From a virus, in the IMG/VR virus record IMGVR_UViG_3300024253_000006: a stretch of DNA of 64,000 nt. One strand, given 5' to 3'. The translations under genes were made by a program, and so were the position numbers. Shown in pieces: positions 4,598 through 64,000 of this stretch (position 1 is its first letter; the number at the start of each line of letters is the position of its first letter). The notes below the pieces were generated by a model that was not told where the DNA came from, did not search any database, and saw only the letters and a program-made list of their open reading frames with translations.

Positions 4598-5616
4598 GCG
4601 AGCCTATTCTAAAACTCGAAGGTGATGCCTTTGAGGCAATTGCCGATACCCGAGAATTGACCCACGAGCAATGGTTAGACCTGCGCCGAACCGGTCTTGG
4701 TGGGGCCGATTCTGGCGCAGTCATGAATATGAACCCCTACTCCAGCCGGTTCATGGTTGCGCTTGATAAATACGGCAAGATCCCACCCAAAGAGGAAACC
4801 GATGCCATGAGGCATGGCAAACGTATGGAGCCAATACTCCGGAGAGAGTTCGTCGATGTTTTTAAAGAGGCAACGGGATGTACCGTGGAGGTTTCAGGGT
4901 CTCCCTGGATGTACCGCTCGAAGCTGTATCCGTGGATGCTTGCTGACATCGATGGTGTTATAAAATTGCCTCCTGAAGGGTACACAACACCCGATGGGAT
5001 TCACCTCGAAGGCATTGGGGGGATGGAATGCAAAGCCGTTTCGTTTGGGAAAGAGTGGAAAGATGACAGCGTGCCCGACAACTACTATTGCCAAGACACA
5101 CACTATATGACCGTTCTCGGGTTCAAGTGGATCATGATGCCTGTCCTCATTATAAATAGGATCGAATTCCGCGTGGTACCGTTGAATTATGAATTTCAGG
5201 CAAAGCTGATTGAGACCGAGCGAGAGTTTTGGAACGATATCATCCTCAAAGGCGAAATCCCGTCACCTGACGGAGTGGATGATGAGGATACATATATCTC
5301 CATGCTGTACCCAGCCCAAACGGAGACTATCGCGCAGCTGCCCGCCGACCTGGAGCACTTGGGACACAGGTATTTGGAACTCATAGAGGCCGAAAACTCA
5401 ATAAAAGGAGAGAAAGAACAGATAAAATCAAAATACAAGCTTGCCATGGGTAATTCGAAGATTGGAATGACTGGAGTAATAGAGGCTGTTTGGAATCGGT
5501 ATCAGAAAAGACAATTCAATAAAGACGCATTTAACCGCTCATATCCCGGGGTCTATGAGACATTTTCCACGCTCGTTCCGGCGGATCGCTTCACAATCAA
5601 AAGGAGATCGGTATGA
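4594..5616 (+). CDS. YqaJ-like viral recombinase-associated exonuclease
   Basis: WLDLRRTGLGGADSGAVM, HGKRMEP, PWMLADIDG, ECK, YYCQDTHYM. Confidence 0.9.
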   Translation: MSEPILKLEGDAFEAIADTRELTHEQWLDLRRTGLGGADSGAVMNMNPYSSRFMVALDKYGKIPPKEETDAMRHGKRMEPILRREFVDVFKEATGCTVEVSGSPWMYRSKLYPWMLADIDGVIKLPPEGYTTPDGIHLEGIGGMECKAVSFGKEWKDDSVPDNYYCQDTHYMTVLGFKWIMMPVLIINRIEFRVVPLNYEFQAKLIETEREFWNDIILKGEIPSPDGVDDEDTYISMLYPAQTETIAQLPADLEHLGHRYLELIEAENSIKGEKEQIKSKYKLAMGNSKIGMTGVIEAVWNRYQKRQFNKDAFNRSYPGVYETFSTLVPADRFTIKRRSV

Positions 5617-6860
5617 AATTAATTGGATTGTCCATTAACGGACTGCGGAAAATCAGGGCCGCTGAATTGGATTTTGATGGACGGGCATTAGTGCAGATAA
5701 AAGGCCGGAATGGCGCTGGAAAGTCTACCATCATCGATGCAATTAAATATCTGCTAAGGGGGAGCAGGGAAATTCCTGCCGGCGTGGTAAGCCACGGCAT
5801 AGCTGACGAATCAGTCATTATCGGAAGAATCAATGACTATACCGTTCGGCGCGTTATCAAAGACGATGGGAAAAGCCTCCTGTCGATCGAGAAGGATGGG
5901 AATAAGATGGGCCGTCCACAGGAATTTCTCGACGCAATCAGCGGTCAATTTTTGGATCCTGAGTATTTTATGAATCTATCACCAGCAGAGAAGCGAGCAA
6001 TGGTTGTGAGGATGGCCGGCCTAGATTTTAGCGAGATCGATTCCCAAATTACTACTGCCGAACAGGACAGGCTGGTAAAAGGGCGGGCCCTAAAGGCTAT
6101 TGGAATACCGGAAGCCGTGGAAAGGGTTGATGCTGTTTCGCTTTCCGACCTCGTAAAAGAACGCAACAAAATTGAAGCCTACAATGCGACGCAACGTGAT
6201 TTACAAGCGGCTTATGGTGCTTTTGTTGGCAATCTAATACATAGGATTATCAAGGAATTTGACGGCGTTACCTCCATGGATGCCATAGGGCTCGCCCTTG
6301 GCCGCGGTATGGATATTTACGAAAGAGGCAAGCTGGGGACGCCGCCTATGGCGCAGCCTGAGAAGTCCTATGCCGAAATTGATGAGCGCATCGCGAACGC
6401 GGAAGCTTTGAACGAGCAAGCCAGACAGTACGAGGCGTACCTCGCGAAGGTTAAACAGAGGGAGAGCGCTGAGGAAGCCTACAATGCCGCACAGTCCACC
6501 GTAGAACATCTTCGGGGAGTGCGGGACGACATGATGAACACCGCTCATGTGCCGATCAAAGGGTTGAAAATCACAGAGACTGGACTGGAATACAAGGGTG
6601 CCTCCTGTGAAAACTGGTCAACATCGGAGAGCCTTAAAATATCCCTCATGCTTGCCGTCGCATACTCAGGGGATTTGAGGACCGTCTATATCAAACGTGG
6701 TGAAGCGTTTGACAGGAATTCCTTGGCATCCATAAAGGAATTTGCTGAAAAGCATGATGTCCAAATCATTATGGAAATTGTCGATGACAGCTATTCTGAC
6801 GACGAAGATGGGATAATTTGGCTCGAAGAAGGCCAAATCGTGAAAGCGAAAAAGGAATAA
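5613..6860 (+). CDS. SMC/Rad50-like AAA ATPase
   Basis: Walker A GRNGAGKST near the N-terminus, coiled coil, C-terminal WSTSESLK signature-like motif. Confidence 0.8.
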   Translation: MKLIGLSINGLRKIRAAELDFDGRALVQIKGRNGAGKSTIIDAIKYLLRGSREIPAGVVSHGIADESVIIGRINDYTVRRVIKDDGKSLLSIEKDGNKMGRPQEFLDAISGQFLDPEYFMNLSPAEKRAMVVRMAGLDFSEIDSQITTAEQDRLVKGRALKAIGIPEAVERVDAVSLSDLVKERNKIEAYNATQRDLQAAYGAFVGNLIHRIIKEFDGVTSMDAIGLALGRGMDIYERGKLGTPPMAQPEKSYAEIDERIANAEALNEQARQYEAYLAKVKQRESAEEAYNAAQSTVEHLRGVRDDMMNTAHVPIKGLKITETGLEYKGASCENWSTSESLKISLMLAVAYSGDLRTVYIKRGEAFDRNSLASIKEFAEKHDVQIIMEIVDDSYSDDEDGIIWLEEGQIVKAKKE

Positions 6861-6862
6861 CT

Positions 6863-7438
6863 ATGAAAGTCGCATGGATCGATGTTGAAACAACCGGACT
6901 CGATTGTACACGGCACGGGATTATTCAGGTCGCCTTCATTGTAGAAATCGACCACAAAATTATCACTAGAGCTGATTTTCGTATGAACCCCGTCGGGAAA
7001 GAGATAGATCCCGGAGCAATGGAGATACACGGTATTTCGTCTGACGAGCTGGAGGCATATCCTCCCTGTGCGTCCGTTAAAGCGAAAATTGAAAGCTTTT
7101 TGGGACAATTCGTCAACAAGTTTGATCGACAGGATAAACTTGTGCCCGCTGGTTACAATGTAGATTTTGATCTGGGATTTATGGAACACTTGTGGCTTGA
7201 TAATGGGGATAAATATTTTTATTCCTGGTTTGAGCGTGTTCCACTGGATGTCTATAGGGATCACAGATTGATGGAGTACGCCGGCCTCGTGCGCGTCCCC
7301 GCCAATAGAAAGCTTGAGACAATGGCTGAAATGTATGGAATTGCAATGCCGAACGCGCACGACGCTGCGGTGGATATCGACACTACATACAAGATTGCAG
7401 AGATCATGCTGAAAAAGATCAAAGGAGAAGCCGTATGA
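6863..7438 (+). CDS. DEDDh 3'-5' exonuclease (DnaQ-like)
   Basis: WIDVETTG, AGYNVDFD, AHDAAVD. Confidence 0.9.
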   Translation: MKVAWIDVETTGLDCTRHGIIQVAFIVEIDHKIITRADFRMNPVGKEIDPGAMEIHGISSDELEAYPPCASVKAKIESFLGQFVNKFDRQDKLVPAGYNVDFDLGFMEHLWLDNGDKYFYSWFERVPLDVYRDHRLMEYAGLVRVPANRKLETMAEMYGIAMPNAHDAAVDIDTTYKIAEIMLKKIKGEAV

Positions 7439-60383: not shown

Positions 60384-60445
60384 CGCCAATTGGAGAATTG
60401 GGCCGGTACTCTCTCAGAGAGATGCCGGCCCTTTTTCTTTTTACG
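60384..60445 (+). terminator. Leader hairpin/terminator-like element, copy C
   Basis: GCCAATTGGAGAATT-GGGCCGGTACTCTCT-CAG-AGAGATGCCGGCCC followed by a T-tract. Confidence 0.7.
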
Positions 60446-60460
60446 GTGCCGGGGGCACGG

Positions 60461-60844
60461 ATGTCAGGCGAAGAAGATAAACAACATGTCATAAAAGATC
60501 ATGAGCGACGATTTACAGAGATAAAAGAGGCGCAAAGAGATCACGAGAAACGCCTCAAATCTCTGGAAGAGGTTTTTGCAAGACAAGACGAAAAACAAAA
60601 ACAGATATTTATGACGCTTGGAGAAATAAAGCAATTGCTGACATCATCAATGGAAGACATGAAAAAAGACAATGAGAAAACAATAGCTGATATGAAAAAC
60701 ATTATTGCCCCTCTATCAGAGGATGTCGAAAGTCTTAAAAGTAAGCCCGGCAAAACATGGGAGAGGATCAAATATGCATTGATCTCCGCCATTATTTCCG
60801 GCATTGTCGGCGTGTTGATAGGTCTTGCTTTTGGCGGTAAATAG
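60461..60844 (+). CDS. Coiled-coil protein with C-terminal membrane anchor (lysis-cassette associated)
   Basis: Coiled coil then YALISAIISGIVGVLIGLAF; upstream of the endolysin. Confidence 0.65.
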   Translation: MSGEEDKQHVIKDHERRFTEIKEAQRDHEKRLKSLEEVFARQDEKQKQIFMTLGEIKQLLTSSMEDMKKDNEKTIADMKNIIAPLSEDVESLKSKPGKTWERIKYALISAIISGIVGVLIGLAFGGK

Positions 60845-60859: not shown

Positions 60860-61459
60860 TTGATATTGAAACCAAGGGAATTATCGCATGAAGACTATAG
60901 GAGTGCAGCAGAATTACTTGGGTGCGACATCGCAATAATTCAGGCTTTCTCCAAAGTAGAATCGAGCGGCTACGGTTTTTGGCAATTTGGTACTGACGAA
61001 TGGCGCCCTGTCATTTTGTTTGAAGCGCATTATTTTTCCCGTTTGACAAACCATGTGTACGATGAATCCCACCCCAAAATATCCTCGCGAACCTATGATG
61101 GCACACTCTATCTTTATGGGAAACATGAATATGACAGGCTTGATGAAGCGTGCTCCTTGGATCGCAGCGCGGGCCTACAGTCCGCGTCTTGGGGGCGCTT
61201 CCAAATAATGGGCGCGAATTGGGAACGCGCCGGCGCCGAATCACTGCAAGATTTTATCAACAAGATGTATAGTATAAAGAATAACTCAGAGGCCGATCAT
61301 CTTGATGCGTTTTGCCATTTTATCCTTTCGAATTCGGATCTCCATAACGCCTTGATACAACATGATTTTATCACCATGGCGCGTCTCTACAATGGCTCAG
61401 GGGCGGTTCAAGGTTACTCTCAAAAACTCAAAAAAGCCTATGATGAGATGAATATATGA
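60860..61459 (+). CDS. Endolysin, N-acetylmuramidase (DUF3380) family
   Basis: AFSKVESSG, ILFEAHYF, SASWGRFQIMG.N, FITMARLYNG. Confidence 0.9.
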   Translation: MILKPRELSHEDYRSAAELLGCDIAIIQAFSKVESSGYGFWQFGTDEWRPVILFEAHYFSRLTNHVYDESHPKISSRTYDGTLYLYGKHEYDRLDEACSLDRSAGLQSASWGRFQIMGANWERAGAESLQDFINKMYSIKNNSEADHLDAFCHFILSNSDLHNALIQHDFITMARLYNGSGAVQGYSQKLKKAYDEMNI

Positions 61460-61758
61460 AAACGAGGAAAGCGACCGCCTTTTGGGCGACATTCTGGGCT
61501 CTTTTGGGGATATATGGATTCACCGCACTGGTGGTTCCATCGGCTCTCTCTGTTGTGGGGACTACTATCATTGGCGCTCTAGCATTCGCAGGTTTTGGAT
61601 ATCAGGCTGCTCAGGTGGGGGACGCCTGGCAAAAATCAGCAAACTATCGCCCGGAGCTTGATCGAGAAAAAGATAGGCAGAAGAGACAATATACCGACCA
61701 AGAGGCTCGGTCTACGCGCATTCCTAAAGTTTCCGATGGCGAGGATATAAATGGCTGA
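61456..61758 (+). CDS. Putative holin
   Basis: Two predicted TM segments and a charged C-terminal tail; next to the endolysin. Confidence 0.65.
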   Translation: MKTRKATAFWATFWALLGIYGFTALVVPSALSVVGTTIIGALAFAGFGYQAAQVGDAWQKSANYRPELDREKDRQKRQYTDQEARSTRIPKVSDGEDING

Positions 61759-62038
61759 ATTGTTGAAAATGGTTCGCGGTTCAAAAGGAAAAATGTATTA
61801 TATGTTTTTCTGCCCCGCATGCAATCATTGCCATGTAATTGATGACACATGGGCAATTTCAGATATGCCAGACAGCCCCACGGTCAGACCTTCGGTTTTG
61901 GTCAATACTAAAAATTCGCCATATTATGAATCCCGTCTTCCAACTTGCCATTTATTTATCATGGACGGAAAGCTGCAATATCTGTCAGATTGTACGCATG
62001 CGTTCTCAGGGAAGACGGTTTCGATGCAGCCTATATAA
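61751..62038 (+). CDS. DUF6527-like Zn-binding protein
   Basis: FFCPACNHCH, PTVRPSVL, CHLFI.DG.LQYLSDCTH. Confidence 0.75.
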   Translation: MAELLKMVRGSKGKMYYMFFCPACNHCHVIDDTWAISDMPDSPTVRPSVLVNTKNSPYYESRLPTCHLFIMDGKLQYLSDCTHAFSGKTVSMQPI

Positions 62039-62050
62039 ACGGAGGTGGGA

Positions 62051-62950
62051 ATGTGTTATTTAAAATTGCCTCATATCTTGCGAAAGTTCCTATTGGGATA
62101 CGCTATTTTGTTCTTGGCCTTCTCTGTGCCTTTATTGTCAGCGCAGTCATTGGAGTCAGCGCAAATAACCACATTAAAAACGAACTTGAGCGAAGCCTTG
62201 ACGATAATACGACAATTAAAACAGAACTTGAAAGACAGAGAGGACTTAATATCGCGGAGAGAGCAAGCATTAGCGCAGAGCGAAACGGAATTGCAGACGA
62301 GAGAAAACAACTGGATAGAGAGAGACAAAGCAATACAGAAGAGAGAGCAAGAAATACAAGCGACAGAGACGCGAATCAACGAGAGAATGAGCGCCTTGCA
62401 AGCGAACGAGAGCGATTATCAAGAGAGACTGCAAGCATTGATGAAGGAAAACGAAGCCTTGATGCAAGAGAAGCAAGCATTGGAGATAGAGAAACAGCAA
62501 TTAGTCAGCGAGAGACAGACATTGGAGCAAGAGAAGGCAGACTTACAGAAAGAGAAAGACGAAATAGTGAAACAGAAAGTCGACTTAACGCAGAGAGAGA
62601 CCGATTATCAGGAGAGAATGGCCGAATTATCGCAGAGGGAAAGCGACTTGCGAACGAGAGAGGCCAACTCGACAGCGAGAGAGCAAGCCTTGAATCAGAG
62701 AGACAGCGACTTGCAAATGAAGGAACAGACATTGAATCAGAGAAGCAACGACTTGCAGATGAGAGAGCAGAACTTGAGCGAGAGAGAGACCTCGCAAGCA
62801 TCGCTGGAGACGGCTTTGACCGACTTGAACAACTCATTAAAGAAAGCATTAACATCCTTGAAATGGGAGAAGGCGAGCAAAATAGCCCTTGAAATAGTTA
62901 TAGGAATTTTGGCCATAGGCTGGGGGCTTGATGCTATTGGCGTTTACTAA
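62051..62950 (+). CDS. Signal-peptide + long coiled coil + C-terminal hydrophobic segment protein (spanin-like candidate, frame B)
   Basis: FLLGYAILFLAFSVPLLSA-QS, heptad repeats, IALEIVIGILAIGWGLDAIGVY. Confidence 0.7.
   Translation: MCYLKLPHILRKFLLGYAILFLAFSVPLLSAQSLESAQITTLKTNLSEALTIIRQLKQNLKDREDLISRREQALAQSETELQTRENNWIERDKAIQKREQEIQATETRINERMSALQANESDYQERLQALMKENEALMQEKQALEIEKQQLVSERQTLEQEKADLQKEKDEIVKQKVDLTQRETDYQERMAELSQRESDLRTREANSTAREQALNQRDSDLQMKEQTLNQRSNDLQMREQNLSERETSQASLETALTDLNNSLKKALTSLKWEKASKIALEIVIGILAIGWGLDAIGVY
62053..62892 (+). CDS. Overlapping N-terminally anchored coiled-coil protein (i-spanin-like candidate, frame A)
   Basis: GTG start 7 nt after GGAGG; YFVLGLLCAFIVSAVIGV TM segment then ~240 aa of heptads, no stop for 279 codons. 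Confidence 0.6.
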   Translation: MLFKIASYLAKVPIGIRYFVLGLLCAFIVSAVIGVSANNHIKNELERSLDDNTTIKTELERQRGLNIAERASISAERNGIADERKQLDRERQSNTEERARNTSDRDANQRENERLASERERLSRETASIDEGKRSLDAREASIGDRETAISQRETDIGAREGRLTERERRNSETESRLNAERDRLSGENGRIIAEGKRLANERGQLDSERASLESERQRLANEGTDIESEKQRLADERAELERERDLASIAGDGFDRLEQLIKESINILEMGEGEQNSP

Positions 62951-62980: not shown

Positions 62981-64000
62981 ATGCAAAAACCCAAAGAATG
63001 CCCATTTTGTCATTCACTTCGAATTGGACTAAAACAGACCTTCTCTGACCGAGTGCGTTGGAAATGTGGAGATTGTAAAAAGTCTTGGTCCACTCCTAAC
63101 ACAGAAAAGGATGCTCCCAAGATATTTACGCAAGAGGCTTCCGCCTTCACCTCCAATAAAAAGGTTGGAGAATTTGATTGGCGCGAATGGACTCCTCACC
63201 TTATGGAGAGGCAGCAACTTCACGAGAAAGCATCTTTCAGCCAGGACAAAGCCGAACTCCATCTTCGGACAGTGTATCGCTACATAGTATGGAAACATAT
63301 AGCAGATACGCATTTGGGAGACATAGGTTCAGATTATGGGTATTTTAAAGATGTATCGGATCAAGTCCTTTCCATTCCCTATCTCTATATCAGCCTCGGT
63401 GGAGATCCGGAGGACGATTTTATCAGTTTCAAAAATCAATTACCGATCGTGCAGCAGATTCTTTCGCCTGCAGAGCAGGATGAATTCCTTGAAAGCTGGC
63501 TAGATGAAATATACCCCAAGCTTCTTTTTGCAAACTGGGGGAATCATTGTATTACTCCTGATTATAATGTTTTAACTAAGCGCGGATGGTTGAAATATAA
63601 TGAGCTGATTGCATCTGATGAAATCCTCAGTTATGATGTTGGGAAAAATAAATGCGTATGGGATAAAATTAATCACATTATTATCAATAATATTGACGAT
63701 AATATCGTGGAATATTCAACTAGGGGATTTAAATTTTCTGGAACGACCAACCATAGGATGCTAGGGCAAAAAGCTTGGGATCGCAAAAATGGAAACTATA
63801 AATATTATTTGGCAGATGAACTGTCCAATGATATATTTTATATCAAATCTTCGGCTGCCTTTGGTAGTAGTGATTATCCGATTAGCGATAATATATTAAG
63901 ATTGTCTGGATGGATGATTACTGATGGCTGTATTTATAATTCAAGTGGAGGTATACCTGATTATCGTATATATCAATCTAAACCACATTTTAAAATAGAG
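62981..64000 (+). CDS. Zn-ribbon + calcineurin-like metallophosphoesterase with intein, truncated by the window end (not in the ORF track)
   Basis: Manual translation: CPFC..CGDC, ADTHLG, LGGD, WGNH followed by intein start; open to the end of the window. Confidence 0.8.
   Translation, partial: MQKPKECPFCHSLRIGLKQTFSDRVRWKCGDCKKSWSTPNTEKDAPKIFTQEASAFTSNKKVGEFDWREWTPHLMERQQLHEKASFSQDKAELHLRTVYRYIVWKHIADTHLGDIGSDYGYFKDVSDQVLSIPYLYISLGGDPEDDFISFKNQLPIVQQILSPAEQDEFLESWLDEIYPKLLFANWGNHCITPDYNVLTKRGWLKYNELIASDEILSYDVGKNKCVWDKINHIIINNIDDNIVEYSTRGFKFSGTTNHRMLGQKAWDRKNGNYKYYLADELSNDIFYIKSSAAFGSSDYPISDNILRLSGWMITDGCIYNSSGGIPDYRIYQSKPHFKIE
63548..64000 (+). mobile_element. Intein (N-terminal part) with LAGLIDADG motif
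   Basis: CITPDYNVLTKRGW, GTTNHRML, RLSGWMITDG; AT-rich. Confidence 0.85.

Follow-up and report, generated by a model that had tools for sequence, protein, structure and literature searches.

Two long coiled-coil proteins probably read from one stretch of DNA that closes a phage lysis cassette

Near the 3' end of the 64,000-nucleotide (nt) DNA of the virus record IMGVR_UViG_3300024253_000006 in IMG/VR (the whole of this stretch is called the window hereafter), two open reading frames (ORFs), frame A and frame B, overlap almost completely in different frames of the same strand. Our results suggest, with a probability of about 0.8, that two real lysis-cassette proteins are read from this one piece of DNA (62051-62950). 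Comparison with homologous sequences makes it very likely that the dual coding is real, and on the same comparative grounds both frames are very probably translated.

Results

Layout of the locus

The two frames open at a single ATGTG, preceded by one Shine-Dalgarno sequence, and the elements of the locus are as follows.

62041..62045, + strand: Shine-Dalgarno sequence GGAGG, common to both starts, read from the sequence; AGGAGG or GGAG lies 4-6 nt 5' of the first start in all homologues with the NTGTG layout described below
62051..62055, + strand: dual start ATGTG, with ATG for frame B and GTG, 2 bases on, for frame A
62051..62950, + strand: frame B ORF, 299 amino acids (aa), with signal peptide, single long heptad helix and C-terminal membrane anchor
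62053..62892, + strand: frame A ORF, 279 aa, with N-terminal membrane anchor, then heptad-repeat helical hairpin
62051..62143, + strand: signal peptide of frame B, residues 1-31, with a predicted signal peptidase I site at A31/Q32
62104..62163, + strand: transmembrane segment of frame A, residues ~18-37, encoded in the same T-rich DNA as the frame B signal peptide (hydropathy peak 2.54; in 18/18 homologues)
62170..62860, + strand: dual-coded heptad region, in which one set of TT dinucleotides supplies the hydrophobic a/d positions of both frames (CTTG, ATTG, ATTA; T periodicity)
62882..62947, + strand: C-terminal transmembrane anchor of frame B, residues 278-299, with a GWGLD motif; the frame A stop falls 8 nt inside it

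When the window sequence was re-read, GGAGG was found at 62041-62045 and ATGTG at 62051-62055. The ATG at 62051 leads to a stop at 62948-62950 and the GTG at 62053 to one at 62890-62892, frame A being already open from 61930. The positions of GGAGG and of both starts agree with those of an initial annotation of this DNA, and every detail of its description of the locus that was checked proved correct. The overlap of 848 nt is the longest same-strand two-frame overlap of the 64-kb window (the runner-up has 519 nt), and the third sense frame carries 31 stops inside it.

The homologue set

Homologues were assembled after the DNA of matching loci had been fetched, and comprise 18 distinct sequences from at least 7 clades, with 21-40% identity to the window for B and 15-33% for A. 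As a query against a collection of 5.8 billion proteins, frame A of the window gave no match and frame B a single weak one (P0003, covering 4% of B), which proved to be a true frame-B homologue and opened the way to the family. Close relatives of the endolysin led to the loci L046 and L047, where the pair was located after the holin, and L048 was reached with a two-sequence profile. Six further proteins came from a B profile, 5 frame-A proteins already annotated by gene callers from an exhaustive search with an A profile, and 4 further loci from a later scan. Scans of metagenomes and genome contigs with B profiles and with the holin gave no match, and neither a DNA nor a protein match was found among the isolated phages of INPHARED. 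No such pair is present in the 45 loci reached via DUF6527, a family encoded next to the pair in the window; the long overlaps that do occur there are chance ORFs of high GC content. Divergence in the 14-sequence alignments was too high for pattern scans.

Both frames are open beyond chance

In frames A and B there is no stop in 18 of 18 homologues, over 525-834 nt and at a GC content of 40-51%, while the third sense frame of these sequences carries 7-31 stops and the antisense frames 1-18. The initial annotation had named, as the result that would speak against dual coding, homologues that keep a single frame open, and the outcome went the opposite way.

Openness was then compared with expectation by fixing the protein of one frame, permuting its synonymous codons and counting the stops in the other frame. 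For the window, 4-5 stops are expected in the other frame and 0 are observed (P 0.0015 and <0.00025), and 10-18 are expected when codons are resampled from the other genes of the window. Since the openness of this GA-rich, partly repetitive copy could stem from its repeat unit, the test was repeated on relatives. In 14 loci, 2.9-7.2 stops are expected with either frame fixed, and P(0 stops) is 0-0.024 in each; L046, L056 and L066, which are not GA-rich, have none where 5-7 are expected. The openness is not a by-product of composition or codon choice.

Selection on each frame

To compare clades, one protein alignment was held fixed, synonymous codons were reshuffled and the identity of the other frame was set against this null; synonymous sites are presumably saturated at these distances. 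Of 21 clade pairs, 13 had an A identity above the null with the B alignment fixed (in one of them 28.6% versus 15.4%, z 6.0, at 34% B identity), and 17 had a B identity above it with the A alignment fixed. In pairs among five clades (L046, L056, L061, L066 and L068), whose fixed frames were 24-42% identical, z was ~4-7, and it was near zero in some pairs with the window or L048. Single-frame flanking genes served as controls, namely those for the endolysin, the XhlA-like coiled coil, DUF6527, the phosphoesterase and the reverse transcriptase (RT). At a real-frame identity of at most 61%, their z ranged from -1.6 to +1.5, with one exception of 2.9, and they showed an excess solely when the real frame was at least ~70% identical. 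Judged with these controls, each protein is more alike among homologous phages than the other frame imposes; the initial annotation had proposed to test whether both frames are conserved.

A pairwise test in the style of OLGenie gave mixed results. Five close pairs, independent of one another, gave a dNN/dNS (selection on A) of 0.67 (confidence interval, CI, 0.54-0.83) and a dNN/dSN (selection on B) of 0.33 (CI 0.27-0.41), with mock-frame controls at 1.34 and 0.74. In these pairs, the check by nonsynonymous and synonymous rates (dN/dS) proposed in the initial annotation fell below the mock controls, but two additional pairs of greater divergence gave a dNN/dNS of 1.18 (CI 0.85-1.67). As the pairwise result was not replicated in these two, the case for selection on A is carried mainly by the cross-clade test.

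Two other approaches were less useful. A synonymous rate in B threefold below that of neighbouring genes was withdrawn as a signal, as different pairs had been compared and the rates are alike within L055-L060. Codon usage was uninformative about the relative age of the frames (relative synonymous codon usage, r 0.15 and -0.02).

Conservation of the double start

A Shine-Dalgarno sequence of the AGGAGG type, followed after 4-6 nt by NTGTG, is present in 14 of the 18 homologues, where NTG opens frame B and GTG frame A (ATGTG in 12, GTGTG in L055 and TTGTG in L065). Residue 2 of B alternates between Cys and Trp, and the GTG is nonetheless kept. Three loci have ATGA(A/G)ATG instead, with the frame B start first and the frame A start 5 nt on, and in L068 frame B starts 23 nt ahead of frame A. 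The single ribosome-binding site that had been proposed to serve both frames is therefore kept in most homologues, and such an arrangement suggests a hard-wired setting of the ratio of the two proteins.

Architecture of the two proteins

Frame A has a single hydrophobic segment, at the N-terminus (present in all 18 homologues). After it come an ERQAAVD-like motif, heptad repeats and an IL.GL.KI-like end, the motif and the end being conserved. Its 3.5-residue periodicity has a power of 8.5-32 across homologues. The AlphaFold2 (AF2) model of A consists of helices at 14-62, 66-185 and 192-275 with a turn at 186-191, and has a mean predicted local distance difference test (pLDDT) score of 77. Hydropathy, periodicity and this hairpin model agree with the N-terminal transmembrane segment and following heptads noted at the outset.

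Frame B has hydrophobic segments at residues ~13-31 and 278-296. In the 14-sequence alignment, its signal peptide is closed by a near-invariant A-Q-E-S with an invariant Q32, and the -3 and -1 residues are L/V and A/S/C, a pattern from which signal peptidase I would be expected to cleave at the A/QES junction. Next come an LSESDKQQL-like motif and a coiled coil rich in Leu and Gln, and an anchor bearing GWGLD forms the C-terminus; the C-terminal hydrophobic segment is present in 17 of 18 sequences and is weaker in L048. The AF2 model is one helix over residues 12-292, with pLDDT >90 over residues ~50-210. The alignment and the model thus bear out the signal-peptide-like start, the heptads and the hydrophobic C-terminus first described for B. 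The frame A stop precedes that of frame B by 58-79 nt, and so falls at the onset of the B anchor, in 17 of 18 homologues.

Frame B contains no lipobox Cys and has no conserved Cys in the cleavage region, in line with the first reading of the locus, and a regular-expression scan near the cassette in the window revealed no lipobox ORF. The external parts of B hold no Cys in 18 of 18 sequences, and those of A none in 15 of 18, with 1-2 in L066, L072 and L074.

The prediction of an A:B heterocomplex, which the initial annotation had recommended, gave an interaction prediction score from aligned errors (ipSAE) of 0.51 for A with mature B, against 0.00 for the best of 3 controls; of 80 solved complexes 58 reach the mark on this score, as do 2 of 110 mismatched pairs, and among those that reach it only 7 of the 80 complexes, but both mismatches, score 0.60 or under. 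Agreement between the runs covers no fewer than 91% of contacts, with a partner pLDDT of 84 or more. The modelling lends weak support to a complex of A and B.

Pfam and PHROG matches to either frame were set aside as generic coiled-coil noise, and a Foldseek search of the A model against the PDB returned nothing at or below E 0.001. Look-alikes in an atlas are leads only: for B, hypothetical proteins of Uroviricota and Spirochaetota, and for A, actinobacterial Mce-like proteins with scores <0.9.

One set of TT dinucleotides serves both heptads

T bases recur in the overlap of the window at 10.5 nt (power 34) and 21 nt (power 33), and hydrophobic residues recur strongly every 3.5 residues in both window proteins (power 21). 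Within CTTG, ATTG and ATTA, the codon of frame A is CTT or ATT (Leu or Ile), and that of frame B is TTG or TTA (Leu). Leu/Ile core positions are possible in both frames because the same TT dinucleotides, spaced at 10.5 nt, are used by both. The proposal that a 21-nt periodicity places Leu/Ile at the heptads of both frames is thus upheld by the T periodicity and the codon reading together. As repeats, the 21-nt arrays are weak, with 1.9-3.1 copies in Tandem Repeats Finder.

The middle of the window copy (62150-62860) is ~80-90 codons longer than in most relatives, and its frame A is Glu/Arg-rich, where most clades are Ser/Gly/Ile-rich. This middle seems to have expanded in heptad-sized steps that preserve both frames and the heptad phase.

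Position in the lysis cassette

The pair follows four other cassette genes in the window.

60398..60844, + strand: XhlA-like coiled coil with a C-terminal membrane segment, the first gene of the cassette (phrog_937 'hemolysin' 1.2e-9; weak PF10779 XhlA)
60860..61459, + strand: endolysin, an N-acetylmuramidase (PF11860 1.7e-49; phrog_2860 2e-54)
61456..61758, + strand: holin-like small membrane protein with a hydrophobic N-terminal half (76% identical to its L046 counterpart; no family match)
61751..62038, + strand: DUF6527 protein, between the holin-like gene and the pair (PF20137 1.4e-4; phrog_3362 1.6e-22)

The order is XhlA-like gene, PF11860 muramidase, holin-like gene, DUF6527 gene, the pair and a phosphoesterase gene. 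The initial annotation had placed the pair after endolysin and holin; the position in a lysis cassette holds, but the DUF6527 gene intervenes after the holin-like gene. The label 'holin' is given by position, as the product of 61456..61758 matches no family.

Across the homologues, the pair is always terminal in the lysis cassette, in three cassette types: one has a PF11860 muramidase and small membrane proteins, another DUF261 and one small membrane protein, and the third is the late-gene junction of a Mu-like phage. It adjoins holin/endolysin genes in the window, L046, L055/56/60 and L066, and elsewhere it comes after PF11860 and two small genes. L068 (1-8558), from a Mu-like phage (Gam, Mor, DUF1804, Portal_Mu, Mu_F), holds the most diverged copy, lying between the Mor region and DUF1804/terminase, the place where Mu keeps its lysis genes. 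The 141-aa gene before this copy matches no family, so that a position after the endolysin is unproven there. The presence of the pair in this Mu-like phage indicates that the module moves between unrelated phage backbones.

Among sequencing runs, a partial DNA match was found in an anaerobic-digester run only. The phage is probably temperate, with an anaerobic digester as its habitat and a spirochaete as its host. DUF261 is a family first described from Borrelia.

Discussion

The comparative evidence points to two proteins encoded by one DNA, and a mechanism for their joint production and action can be proposed. A ribosome at the single Shine-Dalgarno sequence would initiate either at the ATG of frame B or at the GTG of frame A two bases on. 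The product of frame A would be a type-II membrane protein with an N-terminal anchor and an external heptad hairpin. That of frame B would be exported, cut at the A/QES junction, and left as a helix of ~245 residues with a C-terminal membrane anchor. A and B may then form a complex anchored in the inner membrane; as A would be held there by its N-terminus and B by its C-terminus, the heteromer would be antiparallel.

Given that both proteins are made, we see a chance a little short of even that the pair performs the last step of lysis, disrupting the outer envelope, in the manner of a spanin but without a lipoprotein; position and architecture both point this way. More tentatively, it could represent a new class of outer-envelope disruptor for the phages of spirochaetes and perhaps of other diderms, consisting of two inner-membrane coiled coils of opposite polarity, co-initiated, with a ratio set by the choice of start codon and with no lipoprotein. 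In the literature searched, we found no paper on such a co-initiated pair, and for spanins of spirochaete phages just predictions in Leptospira prophages. Of the undescribed dual-frame envelope-disruption pair suggested in the initial annotation, the dual frame and the lack of a described counterpart in that literature therefore stand, and the disruption is a conjecture. If the pair does disrupt the envelope, it would fill a gap, since no spanin is described for spirochaete phages in the same literature. A preprint gives ~15% of phages as lacking a recognisable spanin (bioRxiv 10.1101/515445).

Embedded two-component spanins, such as lambda Rz/Rz1 and T7 18.5/18.7, are the nearest known kind. 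In both cases, an out-of-frame, same-strand gene pair ends the lysis cassette, one product (Rz there, probably A here) sits in the inner membrane with type-II topology and has an external coiled coil, and a complex of both products is expected. However, the known outer-membrane partner (o-spanin) is a short lipoprotein with a lipobox Cys, whereas B is longer than A and has no Cys; the two starts of our pair are 2 nt apart behind one Shine-Dalgarno sequence; B has a signal of the signal peptidase I type, a long helix and a C-terminal membrane anchor; and there is no sequence similarity beyond coiled-coil noise. Among embedded o-spanins, ~70% start at 0.4-0.5 of the length of the inner-membrane partner (i-spanin), and a lipobox is present (PMC6139136, Kongari et al. 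2018). In LambdaSo, a recent worked example, the o-spanin has a Shine-Dalgarno site of its own. From the features by which two-component spanins are recognised, the window shows the N-terminal transmembrane domain, the helical or coiled-coil domain in A and the holin/endolysin neighbourhood, and it lacks the lipobox Cys, a separate start and ribosome-binding site for an o-spanin, and the periplasmic Cys.

Other systems share single features with the pair. B resembles the unimolecular spanin (u-spanin) of phage T1, gp11, in being two-ended with a C-terminal transmembrane domain. However, the lipobox of the u-spanin puts its N-terminus in the outer membrane, where B has the A/QES junction, the invariant Q32 and no Cys, and B is one long helix with a co-encoded partner. 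XhlA of PBSX is likewise a coiled coil with a C-terminal membrane anchor from a lysis cassette, and an XhlA-like gene heads the cassette of the window, but XhlA has neither a signal peptide nor an overlapping partner. The XhlA profiles (PF10779/phrog_937) gave no match to A or B of the window, and matches of phrog_937 to the copies of the pair in L046 are weak (3e-3 and 4e-4).

Two proteins from different frames of one stretch are familiar from viral overprinting, as in phiX174 (D/E and A/B) and in tymoviruses, whose nearly co-initiated ORFs have two start codons a few bases apart. In classical overprinting, however, it is usual for one of the products to be short or disordered and clearly the younger, whereas here both are long, ordered, heptad-phased and nearly equal in length, and come from a double-stranded DNA phage. 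By the measures used for same-strand dual coding, the locus has intact ORFs in 18/18 sequences, openness beyond expectation and purifying selection, the pairwise part of which is mixed.

Several points weigh against a pair of real lysis proteins that opens the outer envelope. The support for translation of either frame is wholly comparative, and the pairwise rate result was not replicated in the more diverged pairs. In the cross-clade test, the copy of the window itself scores strongly against L048 (z 4.8 and 4.1) and L046 (z 3.4 and 1.5) alone, because its expanded middle aligns poorly. Both proteins are predicted in the inner membrane, from which the outer membrane would have to be reached. 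The features that define spanins, lipobox and periplasmic Cys, are absent, and searches of A and B in Pfam and PHROG, and of the A model with Foldseek, gave no match that names a function. The hints to the host are weak, among them the Spirochaetota look-alikes of B in the atlas and the anaerobic-digester run.

The main rival to envelope disruption is a role in lysis timing or endolysin release. Under it, both proteins are made and act on the timing of the holin, on the release of the endolysin, or outside lysis, for example in superinfection exclusion, with XhlA, antiholins, the releasin of Mu and Lcc6 of LambdaSo as analogues. We regard such a role as possible, though not the likelier outcome. 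The predicted inner-membrane anchoring of A and B, the lack of a lipobox and of Cys, and a cassette that already has an XhlA-like coiled coil with a C-terminal anchor would all fit it, and accessory inner-membrane lysis factors are known (bioRxiv 10.1101/2024.01.23.576932). However, the external helices of ~150-245 residues, ~22-37 nm if straight, would be near to spanning the periplasm and exceed what a regulator needs. The terminal position of the pair is the one usual for spanins, and no other outer-membrane candidate was seen in the window.

It is much less probable that a single frame, B or A, is coding and that the other is open as a result of T-poor, purine-rich heptads and repeat expansion. 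Heptad-coded DNA is T-poor, the copy of the window is GA-rich with weak 21-nt repeats, antisense ORFs of 100-170 aa occur as well, and dNN/dNS is near 1 in the two diverged pairs. Such an origin is difficult to reconcile with the copies that are not GA-rich and still open in both frames despite 5-7 expected stops, and with stop-free frames in 18/18 homologues in exactly A and B while every other frame has stops. Furthermore, the relatives preserve the double start from which both frames are read, and either frame shows excess conservation with the other fixed, which is absent in the control genes. A fusion of the two frames by programmed frameshifting or transcriptional slippage, joining for instance the N-terminal anchor of A to the C-terminal anchor of B, would fit the end of frame A exactly at the start of the B anchor and the A-runs of some copies, but is highly improbable, given that a frameshift needs a short overlap and not 175-280 codons open in both frames, that each frame has its own conserved start behind one Shine-Dalgarno sequence, and that no conserved slippery site was noticed in the sequences read, in which no systematic search was made.

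With dual coding of A and B as the preferred reading, the locus is a clean natural case of two long, ordered proteins that overlap over nearly their full length. Heptads that share the TT of their core codons amount to a simple rule by which one DNA can hold two such proteins, and this rule bears on the origin of overlapping genes and on the design of entangled genes.

Annotation of the family and neighbouring genes

Automatic gene calls give one frame per contig, B in L055-L063 and A in L064-L068, and never both. As gene callers report a single frame at each locus, an entire family of proteins is missing from annotations. Among the names given by JGI to products of frame A are 'methyl-accepting chemotaxis protein' and 'MlaD', both apparently misannotations of coiled coils.

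DUF6527 (BubE) is encoded directly 5' of the pair in three clades (window 61751-62038, L048 2642-3001, L065 586-906) and is absent before the pair in L046, L055 and L066. In L048, its stop codon overlaps the ATG of frame B by one base. The gene after the pair, at 62981-64000 and running off the window, encodes a zinc ribbon and then a protein like metallophosphoesterases and DNA-repair exonucleases (phrog_7339). It is broken by a Hint and LAGLIDADG-like insert, a probable intein, and no such interruption occurs in its counterparts in L046 (6516-7337) and L055 (1533-2012). L046 and L047 (~5300-7300) do not differ in a segment that begins midway through the endolysin gene and takes in the holin, the pair and the phosphoesterase. 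Upstream of it they diverge, with amino-acid identities of 63% for the XhlA-like protein and 75% for the RT, which suggests a recent recombination joint within the endolysin gene.

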